Shown: piece by piece, positions 4,835-22,332 of the stretch
Numbering within the stretch: position 1 is the first letter of the stretch
How the letters are laid out: every line of letters starts with the position of its first letter
Notes under the pieces: generated by a model
What the model saw: the letters and a program-made list of their open reading frames with translations, nothing else
What the model was told of the DNA's origin: nothing
The model's database searches: none
Origin: a virus
Length of the DNA: 64,000 nucleotides
IMG/VR virus record: IMGVR_UViG_3300027749_000058
Location: 1 to 64,000 of that record
Strand: one strand, 5' to 3'
Made by a program: the position numbers and the translations under genes

Positions 4835-5637
4835 TGAAGACAAAGTTTGATATAAATGTATACCAAATTCAAAAGAAAGATTTTAGAAATGCTTTCCATA
4901 CTAATGTACTAAAGTATGCTCTATTTCCAAAAGATGATGCAGTCACAAGTTCTATCATAAATGGTTGGCAGTATCAGAAATACATGTTTGATTTCCTTGA
5001 TATGAATCAAATAGATTGTGCAGGAAGAGATATTGTAGATATTGGAGGTAATAACGGAAACTTTGCCGTAGATTTTGCTCATTTAGTTGGTGATAATGGA
5101 AAGGTATTTAGTTTTGAACCACAAAGACTTATCTACTATCAATTATGCGGTAATATATTTATGAATGGTTTGGATAATGTGTACTGTTATAATGTAGCAT
5201 TAGGACATGAAGAAGGTTTTACAAAGATAGATAAACCTAATTACCATTCAAAAGATAATGTAAACTTCGGTGCAGCAGCAATCACTCAATCAGAAACGGA
5301 CTTCGATTTGGTAGTAATGAAAAAACTGGATAACTATGAATTTAATGATATAGTTTTTATTAAAATTGATGTACAAGGTTTTGAATCGTATGTAATAGAT
5401 GGTGCTATTGAAACAATAAAAAAACATAGACCATATATTTTGGTAGAATTTGAAGATCATTTATTAAAAGAATATGGTTCTTCTAATGCAGATTTAAAGG
5501 ATAAGATAGAATCATTAGGGTATATTGTAAAACCATTCCAAGAAGGTATTCCATATCAATCACATAGTGGTTGGTGTTTAGATTATGTATGTATTCCCAC
5601 AGAAAAATTTAATGAGTTTACCCACCTAATTCCATAA
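4834..5637 (+). CDS. FkbM-family SAM-dependent methyltransferase
   Basis: VDIGGNNG, FSFEPQ, FIKIDVQGFE motifs. Confidence 0.85.
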   Translation: MKTKFDINVYQIQKKDFRNAFHTNVLKYALFPKDDAVTSSIINGWQYQKYMFDFLDMNQIDCAGRDIVDIGGNNGNFAVDFAHLVGDNGKVFSFEPQRLIYYQLCGNIFMNGLDNVYCYNVALGHEEGFTKIDKPNYHSKDNVNFGAAAITQSETDFDLVVMKKLDNYEFNDIVFIKIDVQGFESYVIDGAIETIKKHRPYILVEFEDHLLKEYGSSNADLKDKIESLGYIVKPFQEGIPYQSHSGWCLDYVCIPTEKFNEFTHLIP

Positions 5638-16955: not shown

Positions 16956-17081
16956 TTAACGTCGTCCCTGTCCTTGATATGCCTTTGGTCTAGAGCTATG
17001 TTTGTTATATGATTTTTTTGCTAAACCCTTTTTTCTTTTACCAAAAGAAAGTTTTTGTGCTGATGATACTGATTTTGCCAT
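16956..17081 (-). CDS. Small basic peptide ending KAYQGQGRR (41 aa, not in ORF track)
   Basis: MAKSVSSAQKLSFGKRKKGLAKKSYNKHSSRPKAYQGQGRR; minus-strand TATTTAT upstream. Confidence 0.65.
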   Translation of the reverse strand: MAKSVSSAQKLSFGKRKKGLAKKSYNKHSSRPKAYQGQGRR

Positions 17082-17121
17082 GGTTTTTGATTTACAAATA
17101 AATACAAGTATATTTATTTAT

Positions 17122-17415
17122 ATGTTACTAACAGAACAAGAAAAAAAAGATATTTTATCAAAGTATTCTAACGATACTTCAGATGAACTATTAACCCATT
17201 TGAAAAGAACATATCCCATTGAAGAATATAAGACAATTTGGATGGAAAAACCTCTAAAATCAATCTCAATTGATGGAAAATCAAATTTTGTATCAAACAA
17301 TAAGAAATATATTGTTAGCAAGATATCAAATGAACTGGAAGATAATTGGGGTCATTTAGGTACTCAATTATTAAGACGAACAGTTAAGAAATTTATTGAC
17401 GGAATTAGGTTATAG
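17122..17415 (+). CDS. Hypothetical protein with LLTEQ leader
   Basis: ATG at 17122 after TATTTAT (17111). Confidence 0.6.
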   Translation: MLLTEQEKKDILSKYSNDTSDELLTHLKRTYPIEEYKTIWMEKPLKSISIDGKSNFVSNNKKYIVSKISNELEDNWGHLGTQLLRRTVKKFIDGIRL

Positions 17416-17455
17416 TGGAAAAAACTTATCAAAAATCTCGTTATAATGGAAAATA

Positions 17456-17487
17456 TTTGTCAGTATCAAAAATACCCCCTATATTTG
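17456..17487 (+). promoter_or_regulatory. Bacteroidetes-type primary sigma promoter
   Basis: TTTG (17456) - 20 nt - TATATTTG (17480). Confidence 0.6.
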
Positions 17488-17515
17488 TATTCTGATTCTA
17501 AAATACTCAAAAGCC

Positions 17516-17549
17516 ACGGGGTGGGAGACTGGAAAAATTCCCACCCTGT
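17516..17549 (+). ncRNA. GC-rich hairpin downstream of promoter (putative sRNA)
   Basis: acggggtggga / tcccaccctgt stem, no ORF. Confidence 0.4.
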
Positions 17550-17616
17550 ACTTAAAAAAAAAGTTTGGTGGGTTCAGAAATAGTTCTTATCTTTGTGAAA
17601 CAAATACGGAAACAAT

Positions 17617-17724
17617 ATGAAAAAAGAAAAGACATATTTTGATGGTATTATGGTTGGATTTGGAATAACCGCTATAATTTATTCAATCTTATTAGGTGTT
17701 GTGATTAGAATGTTAACAAAATAA
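17617..17724 (+). CDS. Small membrane peptide (35 aa, not in ORF track)
   Basis: MKKEKTYFDGIMVGFGITAIIYSILLGVVIRMLTK; own TTTG-N20-TATCTTTG promoter (17564/17588). Confidence 0.55.
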   Translation: MKKEKTYFDGIMVGFGITAIIYSILLGVVIRMLTK

Positions 17725-17772
17725 ATTGGGATGGATGATGTTTAATCAAAAAGTTTTTTGTATCTTTGTATA

Positions 17773-17818
17773 GAGTTTGGAACTTACAGGTAATGAAAGA
17801 TACTCGGTATCCAAACTC
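17773..17818 (+). ncRNA. Putative small structured RNA
   Basis: Starts 4 nt after TATCTTTG (17761); closing stem gagtttgga/tccaaactc. Confidence 0.5.
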
Positions 17819-17868
17819 AAAAAAAAGATTTGACGGTTTGAAAAAGTCTTCTTATCTTTGAAAAAGAA

Positions 17869-17942
17869 ATCGGGAAGAAAGTAAAAATGTACCTGAAGTG
17901 AGGATGAAAAAATCATCACACCAAATGGTTTGGAATCCCGAT
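17869..17942 (+). ncRNA. Putative small three-way-junction RNA
   Basis: Own promoter (17829/17853); atcggga/tcccgat stem enclosing gtga..gatg/catcac and ccaaa/tttgg hairpins. Confidence 0.5.
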
Positions 17943-18005
17943 AATAGTTCTTTGATTTATTATTTTATTCGTGTTATTTTTTTCTTTTTAGCGATATTTA
18001 TTATT

Positions 18006-18164
18006 ATGGGAAGAAATAAAAAAGAAAAAGAAAAACAAAAAGTTAGATTTGGAATTAGTATCTCGCCTGAAGTAAATAAAACTTTAGATTCTTTAATGAT
18101 TAACAAATCGAAACTTATTGAGAGTTTATTAAAAAAATATTTAGATGACAAAAAAGTGTTCTAA
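18006..18164 (+). CDS. Ribbon-helix-helix-like DNA-binding protein
   Basis: KVRFGISISPEVNKTL...NKSKLIESLLKKYL; ATG at 18006 after TATTTAT. Confidence 0.6.
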   Translation: MGRNKKEKEKQKVRFGISISPEVNKTLDSLMINKSKLIESLLKKYLDDKKVF

Positions 18165-18687
18165 ATGTAATATTGAGAAAGATTTATCTGAATTTAATTC
18201 AAGAAAAGGAATTAAAGATGGTAAAAGACCTGAATGTAAAATATGTGGAAAACAGGTAAGAAAAGTTTATTATGAAAGACCTGAAATTAAAACTAAATAT
18301 AAAACTAGTAAGTGTGAATATAATAAAATAAATTCTGATAAAGTTAAATCTCGTAGGAATAGATGGTTCAGAAAAAAAACAGAAACAGATATTTTATTTA
18401 GATTAAGAAGAAATTTAAGAAATAGGATTTATAAATTTATTGGAAAATCATCAATAAGGACAAAAGATATTGTTGGAATAGAATCTAATGAACTAAAAAA
18501 TTATCTTGAAAATCAATTCAATGACGGGATGTGTTGGGAAAATTATGGTGAGTGGCAAATTGACCACATTATACCATTATCATCGGCAATAACTGAAGAA
18601 GAAATTTATAAACTATGTCATTATACAAATCTTCAACCATTGTGGAAAATAGATAACATAAAAAAAAGTAATAAAATTATATGGTAA
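18145..18687 (+). CDS. HNH (homing-type) endonuclease with N-terminal Zn-binding CxxC pairs
   Basis: CSKC...CKIC; WENYGEWQIDHIIPLS...HYTNLQPLWKIDNIKKSN. Confidence 0.85.
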   Translation: MTKKCSKCNIEKDLSEFNSRKGIKDGKRPECKICGKQVRKVYYERPEIKTKYKTSKCEYNKINSDKVKSRRNRWFRKKTETDILFRLRRNLRNRIYKFIGKSSIRTKDIVGIESNELKNYLENQFNDGMCWENYGEWQIDHIIPLSSAITEEEIYKLCHYTNLQPLWKIDNIKKSNKIIW

Positions 18688-18757
18688 GATAGCTCAGGTC
18701 TGGTAGAGCAATAGTGTGAAATACTATGTGCCGTTTGTTCAAATCAAACTCTTACCA
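18683..18757 (+). tRNA. trnF: tRNA-Phe(GAA)
   Basis: ggtaaga/tcttacc acceptor; atagt-gtGAAat-actat; T loop ttcaaat. Confidence 0.85.
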
Positions 18758-18839
18758 CGAAAGTCTCCAAAATTTATTTTGGTATTTTCAACAATAAAGT
18801 TTGACGGTTTGAAAAAACTATCTTATCTTTGTAAAAGAA

Positions 18840-19103
18840 AAAGACAGAGGTTAATTTTTAAGTGGTGTTTTCTATAATCATCCTTAGTTTTTTCTTCCTC
18901 TTTAAACCAAGAGAAAATGGTAATAAAATATAGTAAGGTTTGCAGGAATGGAATATCCTCAATTCACCTAAAGTAATTAAAATCATATCAAGTTCTTTTT
19001 ACGGTGTTTTTATCTTTGATGTAAAACAAAAGAATGTCTTTCTTTACGAGTTGCCGACTCAAATGAAGTTCTAAGAGATGAACAATTTTCTTAGGATATT
19101 CGC
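18840..19103 (+). ncRNA. Structured ncRNA, copy 1
   Basis: Promoter 18800/18824; closing stem aaagaca/tgtcttt; agagg/cctct; ctata/tatag; no ORF. Confidence 0.75.
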
Positions 19104-19151
19104 CAATAAAGTTTGACAGTTTGAAAAAACTATCTTATCTTTGTAAAAGAA

Positions 19152-19414
19152 ACGGACAGAGGTTATTTTTTAAGTGGTGTTATTACAATCATCCTTAATT
19201 CTTTCTTCCTCTTTAAACCAATAAAAGAAACAAACAAAATGTAAAAAGGTATATAGGAATGGAATATCCTGAATTCACCTCAAGTAATTAAAATCATATC
19301 AAGTTCTTTTTACGGTGTTTTTATCTTTGATGTAAAACAAAAGAATGTCCTTCTTTATGAGTTACCGACTCAAATGAATTTTTAAGAGATGAACAATTTT
19401 CTTAAAATATTCGC
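19152..19414 (+). ncRNA. Structured ncRNA, copy 2
   Basis: Promoter 19112/19136; ggaca/tgtcc; agagg/cctct; ttaca/tgtaa. Confidence 0.75.
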
Positions 19415-19462
19415 CAATAAAATTTGATTGTTTGAAAAAACTTTCTTATCTTTATAAAAAAA

Positions 19463-19733
19463 ACGGACAGAGGGTTTATTTTCAGTGGTGGTTTCCCATA
19501 CTCACCCATGAGATTTGTAATTTTCCTCTTTAAACTAAAAACAAATCCAAAATAAAACACGGGAGGATTATAAGAATGGTATTCTTTGTCTACCCTTAAT
19601 ATGATAAAATTAACCAAGTCTTTTTTAGTTGTTTTTGACTTTAAATAAAAACAGAAAGATGTCCTCTTTCAGGGTAAACGGAAAATCAACCCATCTACAA
19701 ATGATTCCACAATTTTTCCTGACGGGGAATTCT
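19463..19733 (+). ncRNA. Structured ncRNA, copy 3 (diverged)
   Basis: Promoter 19423/19447 (TATCTTTA); ggaca/tgtcc; agagg/cctct; tccc/ggga; gatttgt/acaaatc. Confidence 0.7.
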
Positions 19734-19764
19734 AAGGAGACACGACGGTGTCTCCTTTTTTTTT
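19734..19764 (+). terminator. Intrinsic terminator closing the ncRNA array
   Basis: aaggagacac-gacg-gtgtctcctt followed by T run. Confidence 0.85.
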
Positions 19765-19798
19765 GTGATATTTAACTATTTATAATAAAATAGAAAAA

Positions 19799-20809
19799 AT
19801 GTCACAACCAGCAATAACAACACCTTTAGCGTATAATCCAAGTTTATCACCAATTTCAGGAACAGACCAAATTGGAACATTAGCGGTAGGAATTACTGAC
19901 CAAGATTACAGTATAAATCCAGGAGGGATAAAATGGTGGATGGGAGCCGATGAATTAAATGGTTATGTTATTGCCGTTCCTGTTTCAGGAGATACTCAAC
20001 CAACACCAATTTCTGGAGTAACCGCATCTGTTGGGTTTTTTCAATCAACAAATTTAACCGATAATTCTTTTATTGAATTAACAAATAATGAGTTTAATCA
20101 AAATTTTACTGGTGCAACCGAAGCAAGTATATGGTTAACAAATAATGGTTATTGGAATTCATACCCTGCCCCTGTTTTATATTTGGATGCTGGTAATTTA
20201 TCAAGTTATCCTGGTACAGGGACTGTTTGGACTGATTTGGTTGGTGGAAAACAATTTAATTTAATTAATGGACCAGGATATGACCCAGGAAATGGTGGTA
20301 AATTTTATTTTTATGCCGCAGGTAGTCAATACGCCAACTGTTCAACAAGTTTACCATCACTACCAAAATTTACAACAGCAATTTGGCATTATTGGGATGG
20401 TAATAATACAGGTGGATTACCTTGTATATTATCTGAAGTTTATACTAGTAGTATTAACTATTTTGTTGGAGCACCTCAAGGTGTTATTGCTCAAGGAGGA
20501 TATTTTAATGGAGGATTTCAACTTTCACCTCAATTTACGTTAACACCAAATACTTGGTATCAGATTGTTACAACTTGTGATTCAAGTCAAGTGGTTAGAA
20601 TTTATCTTAACGGAACATTAATTAGTTCAACACCTACAACAGGTCCTCAACCATCTTCAAGTAATGCTGGAATAAACTTAATGAGAAGATGGGATAATGC
20701 TGAATTCTGGGGAGGTTATTTATCCACCGTTGGAATTTATGATAAAGCATTAACACCAGGACAAATTTCTGGAATCTATAACTCAACTAAATCAAGATAC
20801 GGATTATAA
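19799..20809 (+). CDS. Virion/tail protein with LamG (concanavalin A-like) domain
   Basis: LYLDAGNLSSYPGTGTVWTDL...WYQIV...RIYLNG...IYDKALT. Confidence 0.8.
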   Translation: MSQPAITTPLAYNPSLSPISGTDQIGTLAVGITDQDYSINPGGIKWWMGADELNGYVIAVPVSGDTQPTPISGVTASVGFFQSTNLTDNSFIELTNNEFNQNFTGATEASIWLTNNGYWNSYPAPVLYLDAGNLSSYPGTGTVWTDLVGGKQFNLINGPGYDPGNGGKFYFYAAGSQYANCSTSLPSLPKFTTAIWHYWDGNNTGGLPCILSEVYTSSINYFVGAPQGVIAQGGYFNGGFQLSPQFTLTPNTWYQIVTTCDSSQVVRIYLNGTLISSTPTTGPQPSSSNAGINLMRRWDNAEFWGGYLSTVGIYDKALTPGQISGIYNSTKSRYGL

Positions 20810-20834
20810 TATATTTATTAGTCAATGACATACC

Positions 20835-21347
20835 ATGGCTATCAATCAAAAAATATTCGCATATAATACAGGATCGTTAATTTCAGGAACCACTCAAGTC
20901 GGAGACATTGCGGTTAGTGAGATTAACGTTGAATATAGTAACAATTATGGTGGTCTACAATGGTGGGGTGGACCAGATGAAACTAATGGTTATGTGATAG
21001 CACATACTGACCCATCAGGTAGTCATAATGGTGAACCATCAACACCTGCTTATTTAGGATTTTGGAGAAGTAACGGACTTACAGACCAATCTTTTTTAGA
21101 GTTATGTAATTCAATTCCTCCAAGAATTGGATATCCTCCATTTACAAATACTTTAGATGCTTCAGCTTGGTTATACAATAATGGATATTGGACATCATTT
21201 ATTTCTTCAACACCTACAACAACACCCACAATAACACCTACAAACACTCCAACACCAACATCAACCCAACAATACTTTTTATTATTTGAGGATAGTTCAA
21301 TTGCTACGGCAGAAAATAACAATAATATTGAAATAGATATAATATAA
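20835..21347 (+). CDS. Virion protein sharing its N-terminal domain with 19799
   Basis: AYN..ISGT.Q.G..WWxGxDExNGYVIA shared; PT-repeat linker. Confidence 0.7.
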   Translation: MAINQKIFAYNTGSLISGTTQVGDIAVSEINVEYSNNYGGLQWWGGPDETNGYVIAHTDPSGSHNGEPSTPAYLGFWRSNGLTDQSFLELCNSIPPRIGYPPFTNTLDASAWLYNNGYWTSFISSTPTTTPTITPTNTPTPTSTQQYFLLFEDSSIATAENNNNIEIDII

Positions 21348-22196: not shown

Positions 22197-22332
22197 AACT
22201 CATCCCCATCTTCACGGTGGGGATTTTTGTTTATCCAATCTATTTATATTAAAATAATTTATGCCGAAAAAAATAGTAAGATTAACAGAATCTGAATTAG
22301 CTAATATTATTAGAAACGTAATTAAGGAACAA
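22197..22332 (+). repeat. Terminator + TATTTAT + leader-coding cassette, copy A
   Basis: Similar to 23495-23631, including the identical aactcatccccatcttcacggtggggatttttgtttat. Confidence 0.8.

Follow-up and report, generated by a model that had tools for sequence, protein, structure and literature searches.

Evidence for an array of three structured RNA genes in a lake-water jumbo phage

The array and its signals

The DNA considered here (the window, 64,000 nucleotides (nt)) is the first 64 kb of the 110.9-kb IMG/VR virus record IMGVR_UViG_3300027749_000058, which CheckV rates as 37% complete, so that a genome of about 300 kb is expected. At 18780-19770 of the window, between a phenylalanine transfer RNA (tRNA-Phe) gene and a gene for a virion-type protein, lie three head-to-tail units (units 1 to 3) that very probably constitute an array of genes for a structured RNA. 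An earlier note, drawn up from this sequence by itself, had described three tandem units here, and these were recovered with Tandem Repeats Finder, MAFFT and BLAST: Tandem Repeats Finder reports a period of 311 with 2.2 copies and 89% matches over 18792-19490 (units 1 and 2), and the third, diverged copy was added by MAFFT and BLAST (71% identity between unit 2 and 19407-19669). Units 1 and 2 are 89% identical to each other and unit 3 is about 71% identical, being 55 nt longer than unit 2, and the 110.9-kb record contains these three copies of the family only. The phage falls into a clade of lake-water jumbo phages with genomes of roughly 320 kb, whose promoters point to Bacteroidota hosts. 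Its features are as follows, where R1 is a covariance model of the 5' core of the RNA and P10 and P11 are hairpins of the fold described below:

18683..18758, plus strand: tRNA-Phe(GAA) gene (found by ARAGORN and, at 57 bits, by Rfam), conserved as the 5' neighbour of the RNA family
18800..18831, plus strand: predicted unit 1 promoter of Bacteroidota type (TTTG, then TATCTTTG; sequence words)
18834..19096, plus strand: RNA unit 1, about 262 nt (R1, 61.5 bits, E 6e-14)
19112..19143, plus strand: predicted unit 2 promoter (TTTG, then TATCTTTG; sequence words)
19146..19407, plus strand: RNA unit 2, about 261 nt (R1, 55 bits, E 3e-12)
19423..19454, plus strand: predicted unit 3 promoter (TTTG...TATCTTTA; sequence words, conserved in relatives)
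19457..19765, plus strand: RNA unit 3, about 308 nt (R1, 123.5 bits, E 4e-30)
19716..19729, plus strand: P10, 5-base-pair (bp) hairpin with an invariant GACG loop and a covarying stem
19734..19765, plus strand: P11, predicted intrinsic terminator with a 10-bp stem, GACG loop and U-run (hairpin at 19736-19755)

As the note had proposed, each unit has a promoter of its own, in which TTTG is followed after a spacer of about 20 nt by TATCTTTG in units 1 and 2 and by TATCTTTA in unit 3, the three promoters starting at 18800, 19112 and 19423. The window holds 10 occurrences of the word pair TTTG-N17-23-TATCTTTG, where 0.42 would be expected; besides the array it is seen at 5222, 7884, 17564, 17829, 50060, 51472, 53921 and 54646, and several of these outside sites, including the last three, precede phage tRNA genes. 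This enrichment, together with the sites before tRNA genes, speaks for a Bacteroidota host and for the tRNAs and small RNAs of the phage being expressed as one class, and the RNA units appear to carry the same promoter class as the phage tRNAs. Just one terminator-like site was found in 17500-20200, at 19734-19757, in agreement with the single terminator reported earlier. It follows unit 3; units 1 and 2 lack one, so that they are probably made in nested read-through transcripts.

The units had also been described as free of open reading frames (ORFs). Indeed, no ORF is conserved between the copies or across the 37 members of the family, and units 2 and 3 contain none of at least 25 amino acids (aa). 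ORFs of 20-50 aa within the units differ in frame and extent from copy to copy, and the longest ORF of the family is confined to one lineage, where frameshifting indels leave it at 28, 42, 58, 79 or 90 aa; its ATG is ACG or AAG in the copies of the window. With frames broken by indels, a lost start codon and no conserved ORF, a coding function was rejected.

Among the 4227 models of Rfam 15, with membership set at a score at or above the gathering threshold of the family, tRNA-Phe alone passes in 18650-19850, the next best scores being 11-25 bits against thresholds of 37-87. Besides tRNA-Phe, the array has no Rfam match at E up to 10, and four relatives have none at E up to 1. This holds for ROOL (RF03087) and GOLLD (RF01998), with zero matches to the array even at E up to 10, for the bacterial, archaeal and minimal RNase P models (zero matches at E up to 10) and for the riboswitch and T-box aptamer models, in the window and in the four relatives. 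A transfer-messenger RNA (tmRNA) is found neither by ARAGORN in 17000-21000 nor among the Rfam matches. The Rfam comparison suggested in the note thus bears out its view that the RNA lies outside tRNA, tmRNA, RNase P and other known families. We conclude that the RNA belongs to no catalogued family and that its closest kind are the ornate phage RNAs associated with tRNA genes; possibly it is one of the 10,006 candidates for structured RNAs of viruses listed by Fremin et al. 2023 (PMC10690425).

The family and its fold

BLAST of the array against 50,697 phage records returned nothing, as did an IMG/VR pattern requiring the window's own CCTCT word; relaxed patterns succeeded. Relatives were reached by two routes. 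Through the downstream protein, full-length single-copy orthologues of unit 3 were found in three distinct IMG/VR phages, with promoter and terminator present and directly upstream of the gene for that protein; unit 3 is about 70% identical to the single-copy orthologues over its full length. By the other route, four DNA patterns built from conserved words recovered 36 true metagenome contigs, mostly from lake samples. IMG/VR contigs with the family number 37, and four of them are 317-321 kb long. All pattern-recovered relatives score 96-256 bits with R1, which has 208 positions and 39 pairs and was built from one lineage only; the note had suggested a search with such a model. Ten further pattern matches, five in metagenomes and five in bacterial genomes (Vampirovibrio, Caldilineaceae, a cyanobacterium and Neisseriaceae), were dropped as chance because R1 rejects them, and neither a cellular homologue nor a clue to the host was seen in the pattern scan of genome contigs checked with R1.

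The family is mostly single-copy, other phages carrying one copy. The exceptions are four metagenome contigs with two copies, a unit 2-type followed by a unit 3-type copy (unit 2-type orthologues occur in L030, L046, L060 and L063). Two or three copies are limited to the clade of this phage, and three are found in this window only. Promoter and terminator bracket the RNA in all lineages. In the lineages examined a tRNA-Phe(-like) gene nearly always precedes the RNA, 56-118 nt upstream of the promoter-RNA unit, and in loci with enough sequence the terminator lies 25-50 nt before a co-oriented gene.

The helices of the RNA were read from alignments and then counted, with sliding of the 3' partners as a control that keeps the phylogeny; covariation counts cover 37 distinct sequences. 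P1 closes the 5' core. The strand directly after P1 pairs with the loop of hairpin P3 (P2), the loop of the nearly invariant hairpin P4 pairs with the strand 3' of P3 (P5), and the next four bases of the 3' strand of P5 pair with the loop of hairpin P7 (PK3); P6 and P8 are plain hairpins. In unit 3 and in all single-copy forms the core is followed by a 3' domain, in which the loop of P9 pairs with a downstream strand (PK4) ahead of P10 and P11. The P4 hairpin of the single-copy forms is the 20-mer GGUGGUUNCCCAUACUCNCC, and its loop is recoded in units 1 and 2. Unit 3, with its 5' core at 19457-19668 and the 3' domain (P9, PK4, P10, P11), has all features of the family, and units 1 and 2 keep all core helices despite the recoded P4 loop. 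In unit 1 the core fold P1-P8 is succeeded by P9 and by a short hairpin at the 3' end, with no terminator; unit 2 is built in the same way, but its P5 is recoded (ttaca/tgtaa) and its P3 remodelled. The positions of the helices (5' strand/3' strand) are:

Unit 1, plus strand: P1 18842/19035, P2 18847/18897, P4 18864/18879, P5 18872/18929, P3 18888/18909, PK3 18936/18966, P6 18944/18956, P7 18961/18975, P8 19005/19023, P9 19048/19056, 3' hairpin 19071/19089
Unit 2, plus strand: P1 19154/19346, P2 19159/19208, P4 19176/19190, P5 19183/19240, P3 19199/19224, PK3 19247/19277, P6 19255/19267, P7 19272/19286, P8 19316/19334, P9 19359/19367, 3' hairpin 19382/19400
Unit 3, plus strand: P1 19465/19660, P2 19470/19524, P4 19487/19502, P5 19495/19561, P3 19512/19541, P6 19572/19581, P8 19629/19647, P9 19672/19689, PK4 19680-19688 with 19702-19708

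The pairings that the note had read from the three copies were all found again at the positions it gives: the closing stem (agaca/tgtct at 18842/19035, ggaca/tgtcc in its other version), the (a)gagg/cctc(t) pairing inside the loop of a variable stem, the ggtg/ca(t/c)c hairpin with its loop pairings ctata 18872/tatag 18929, ttaca 19183/tgtaa 19240 and tccc 19494/ggga 19561, agga/tcct against aagaat/attctt, and the 3' hairpin ctaaga/tcttag against ttaaga/tcttaa. Its larger claim, a conserved and complex pseudoknotted fold under selection, is upheld by the counts across the 37 sequences. The nested helices are 88.6% paired, compared with 45-55% when slid, and 23 of the 39 pairs (171 cells) changed on both sides, which was reached in 0 of 500 shuffles; their covariation score of 0.315 compares with 0.123 after shuffling and with 0.106 or less after sliding. 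For P2, P5 and PK3 taken together pairing is 90.1% (45-60% slid) and both partners have changed in 8 of 12 pairs; for P10 and P11 the figures are 98.8% (47-67% slid) and 10 of 14 pairs (0/500 shuffles in each case). The first reading of the sequence did not have the single-copy majority, unit 3 as the ancestral form with a 3' domain, the two further pseudoknots or the twin GACG hairpins.

The variety of sequence solutions is seen helix by helix. P3 has more than six unrelated ones; P7 is GUCUG/CAGAC, AGAUUU/AAAUCU, GUCUU/AAGAC or AAUU/AAUU; and P2 occurs as GCGGA/UCCGC, AGAGG/CCUCU and GAGAG/CUCUC. Most lineages have AGGU/ACCU as PK3 and four have CAGU/ACUG, and PK4 takes at least seven forms at one place, e.g. 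AUGAUU/AAUCAU, AUGGUU/AACCAU, GGUGU/ACACC, GGUCA/UGACC and AGAUU/AAUCU. The stem of P10 appears as GUCCU/GGGAC, UCCCU/GGGGA, UUCCU/GGGAA or UUCUC/GAGAA, and its loop stays unchanged: P10 has GACG without exception, and P11, whose stem varies, has it in 23 of 24 sequences. Hairpins with a GACG cap and a stem of at least 6 bp number three in 110 kb of this genome. The twin GACG tetraloops (19716-19729 and 19736-19755) might be bound by an RNA-binding factor that is dimeric or repeated. An extra pairing of the U-rich strand before P4 with the A-rich strand after P7 was dropped as low-complexity.

Unit 3 is the orthologue of the single-copy gene and the ancestral full-length form. Units 1 and 2 are duplicates of the upstream element with promoter, core and P9, which end in the short hairpin and lack PK4, P10 and P11. 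Between these two, 85 nt from P7 to P1 are identical. In P5, both partners of two pairs have changed and the pairing persists (C-G/U-A and U-A/C-G; CUAUA/UAUAG in unit 1 and UUACA/UGUAA in unit 2), and the same is true of one P1 pair (A-U/G-C) and one pair of the 3' hairpin. P3 is remodelled and still a helix, and no change breaks P2, P4, P6, P7, P8, P9 or PK3. Furthermore, cognate loop/flank pairs outscore non-cognate ones among the paralogues. These compensated changes, the cognate scores and the unit 2-type copies in four other contigs indicate that the duplicates have been kept under selection for the fold. Their shared read-through transcripts may be the reason why helices of units 1 and 2 are recoded, as the note had suggested.

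Flanking sequences

The sequence downstream of the array holds a candidate promoter word and the neighbouring gene:

19776..19792, plus strand: word beginning CTATTTATA, candidate phage promoter, located 3' of the terminator and 5' of the next gene and repeated at 22240
19799..20809, plus strand: downstream gene for a virion-type protein with a concanavalin/LamG-like domain (Pfam PF13385, 8e-17; PHROG 'virion structural protein')

The word of about 17 nt, found at 19776-19792 and 22240-22256, reads CTATTTATA, then A or T, then TAAAATA, and both occurrences sit after unrelated terminators and before unrelated genes. In 14 of the 16 lineages listed an (A/C)TATTTAT word lies 3' of the RNA terminator, sometimes just 4-8 nt before an ATG, and this TATTTAT word is a candidate phage-specific promoter that would give very short leaders. 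The 9-mer CTATTTATA is not enriched in the window, which leaves conserved position as the sole basis for a 'late promoter' reading. The concanavalin/LamG gene is the neighbour of the RNA in most, not all, loci. An N-terminal domain of about 120 aa, with motifs around WW.G.DE.NGYVIA, is common to the adjacent genes 19799-20809 and 20835-21347; it also heads the gene next to the RNA in most relatives, with differing C-terminal parts, so the group looks like a family of modular virion proteins.

Upstream, the D-loop of the tRNA-Phe-like gene contains in most lineages an additional hairpin of about 16 nt with a UUCG-type loop (e.g. L006:5487-5577, L010:5502-5592 and L085). ARAGORN calls such tRNAs Arg, SeC or Trp, or misses them, and Rfam gives them just 26-30 bits; the tRNA-Phe of the window is canonical and without the extra hairpin. 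In two lineages (L082:360-520 and L105) the tRNA and the RNA promoter are separated by an additional stretch of about 70 nt that could form a hairpin. In L008:5340-5490 a tRNA stands directly 3' of a promoter/leader that matches 17829-17930 of the window, where a small ORF (17898-18164), whose ribbon-helix-helix match is weak and below threshold, and a gene for an EndoVII/HNH-type nuclease (18145-18687) lie between that promoter/leader and tRNA-Phe. The segment 17821-18687 looks like a mobile nuclease cassette inserted upstream of the tRNA-Phe gene.

Mode of action and known systems

The reading that we narrowly prefer as a whole is that of three paralogous genes for a structured non-coding RNA that acts in trans. 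Each unit would be a stand-alone structured RNA made from its own host-type promoter, with the full build in unit 3 only, and it would be produced together with the tRNA set of the phage. In its core, hairpins P3, P4 and P7 are each tied down by a loop-to-strand helix (P2, P5 and PK3, respectively). The 3' domain adds a fourth knot, P9/PK4, and a pair of hairpins with GACG caps, of which the second is the predicted terminator. Units 1 and 2 would be transcribed within nested read-through transcripts that end at 19765, their extra copies would raise the dose, and the recoded P3 and P5 helices would keep neighbouring units from mispairing. The invariant loops, i.e. the near-invariant P4 hairpin and the twin GACG loops, may be recognised by a protein or RNA partner, and the RNA might be part of a particle, or a decoy. 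That it acts in trans as an abundant, stable folded particle is a tentative proposal, a little short of an even call. Trans action is favoured here because the downstream gene differs between lineages, the TATTTAT word stands between terminator and gene, and units 1 and 2 have no gene of their own.

Several observations weigh against this account or against the fold on which it builds. Transcription, ends, abundance and timing are read from sequence signals alone; moreover, the constant placement of the terminator 25-50 nt before a co-oriented gene also fits a role in cis. As for the fold, the support for the pseudoknots comes from few events at the level of lineages, P5 is CCC/GGG in every lineage save the extra paralogues, and alignments fitted to a model lean towards the structure of that model. 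An all-against-all column scan gave 136 apparently covarying pairs, of which 8 lie in helices, and register-free shuffles gave combined Fisher p values of 0.03 for P5, 0.19 for P2, 0.20 for PK4 and 0.5 for PK3. Shuffles of loop and flank yield p of about 0.2-0.5 per sequence, with one 8-bp variant alone beating chance in this AT-rich RNA. Since the register-free shuffles are non-significant and the naive covariation scan is swamped by phylogeny, the case for the pseudoknots rests on compensation in register and on the slid controls. The minimum free energy of single units is no better than that of shuffles (z = -0.5, -0.8 and -2.1), and RNAalifold on six sequences recovered the fold in part.

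That there is no RNA gene at all, the array being instead a repeat at the level of DNA (iterons of an origin, or a substrate for recombination) or a decayed duplicated coding sequence, is hardly tenable. Such a reading could point to a tandem direct repeat in AT-rich intergenic DNA and to the one lineage with an ORF of up to 90 aa, but the family is mostly single-copy, substitutions preserve strand-specific pairing including G-U, indels break every reading frame, and promoter and terminator bracket the unit in all lineages; ORF analysis and the covariation counts largely refute it. A cis-acting leader, in which RNA and terminator control how much transcription from the strong host-type promoter reads through into the virion gene, is quite unlikely. 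On this reading a phage antitermination or termination factor would land on the GACG hairpins P10 and P11, or else the core would sense a ligand. The short distance to the co-oriented gene would suit it, as would the invariant loops and covarying stems of P10 and the terminator, which are unusual for a plain terminator, and the rarity of GACG-capped hairpins in the genome. However, the downstream gene varies among lineages, and the conserved TATTTAT word before the start codon, which also follows an unrelated terminator at 22240, suggests a separate promoter. Units 1 and 2 have neither expression platform nor gene and lack the terminator that follows unit 3, no alternative antiterminator pairing was seen by eye, and no riboswitch or T-box model of Rfam matches.

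Catalytic RNAs typically have a dense core of this kind, with several knots and invariant joining strands, and a ribozyme might cleave itself to release the units from the read-through transcript of units 1 to 3, or act in trans on the insertion-bearing tRNA-like genes. The lack of terminators after units 1 and 2 and the consistent tRNA-Phe(-like) neighbour, with its extra D-loop hairpin in most lineages, would agree with such an activity. Nevertheless, this is very improbable: no ribozyme family of Rfam matches, no candidate cleavage site or guide-like complementarity was found, and with one promoter per unit and mostly single-copy phages a release of units is not needed. By analogy with the homo-oligomers of ROOL, GOLLD and phi29 pRNA, some of P2, P5, PK3 and PK4 might instead be intermolecular, giving a self-assembling RNA-only complex in which the orthogonal P5 helices of the three units keep the paralogues in separate assemblies. 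The P5 pairs of the paralogues are indeed mutually non-cognate, pairing in cis and in trans is indistinguishable by covariation, and a loop-linker pairing of GOLLD that was first predicted by covariation proved to be an intermolecular bridge (PMC12286853). The setting is likewise that of ROOL and GOLLD, namely phage-encoded, beside tRNA genes, with many pseudoknots and no known protein partner (PMC12286853). On the other hand, 260-310 nt is about half the size of ROOL and GOLLD or less, P5 is CCC/GGG in all single-copy lineages, and all four pairings are sterically possible in one chain, with connecting loops of at least 2 nt and long linkers that contain hairpins, so that we regard self-assembly as unlikely. 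Rather improbable, too, is that the RNA is the working part of a new jumbo-phage RNA machine, catalytic or self-assembling, linked to the odd set of phage tRNAs. Such a machine could, for instance, have the insertion-bearing tRNA-like genes as its target or assemble into an RNA-only particle, with the paralogues as orthogonal versions.

Large, intricately folded RNAs without a known job are rare and have repeatedly proved to be ribozymes, riboswitches and, recently, RNA-only cages. The present family has four loop-to-strand knots and a distribution confined to a coherent clade of giant phages. At about 300 nt it is compact enough for probing, crystallography and cryo-EM, and the three paralogues in one genome amount to a natural mutate-and-rescue experiment, in which helices are rewritten and pairing is kept.

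The earlier note had put forward ribozyme, decoy and guide roles, all of them guesses, and had likened the array to ToxI-type repeats. This analogy finds no support here: ToxI antitoxin repeats are about 36 nt long and lie next to a ToxN-type toxin gene, whereas the unit here is 311 nt with tRNA-Phe just upstream, and no toxin family was matched when the neighbouring ORFs were scanned against protein families (the EndoVII/HNH-type nuclease, the small ORF with the weak ribbon-helix-helix match, the LamG-type virion protein and ORFs without a family match). In phage T4 the small stable RNAs C and D (species 1 and 2), of about 120-140 nt and unknown function, are located in the tRNA gene cluster and processed from a tRNA precursor; they are not known to have pseudoknots. 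The present RNA resembles them in being phage-encoded and co-located with phage tRNA genes, but has a predicted promoter and terminator of its own. The pRNA of phi29, about 174 nt long and found in small podoviruses of Firmicutes, is made from a promoter for the host RNA polymerase, and its loops, which covary between relatives with complementarity kept, pair between molecules to form a ring on the portal. By contrast, the present RNA has no match to pRNA in Rfam and nothing found here links it to packaging.

The closest comparison is with ROOL and GOLLD, large ornate RNAs of phages and prophages that usually lie beside tRNA genes, with many covariation-supported pseudoknots, no ORF, no known partner and a function that is unknown (PMC12286853). 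Like these, the present RNA is phage-encoded, adjoins a tRNA gene, has many predicted pseudoknots and lacks an ORF. Unlike them, it measures 260-310 nt rather than about 500-800 nt or more, shows no match in sequence or structure, and comes from lake phages of Bacteroidota type. The family may be viewed as a Bacteroidota-phage counterpart to ROOL and GOLLD, which strengthens the pattern of ornate phage RNAs beside tRNA genes and gives another system for testing what such RNAs do for the phage.

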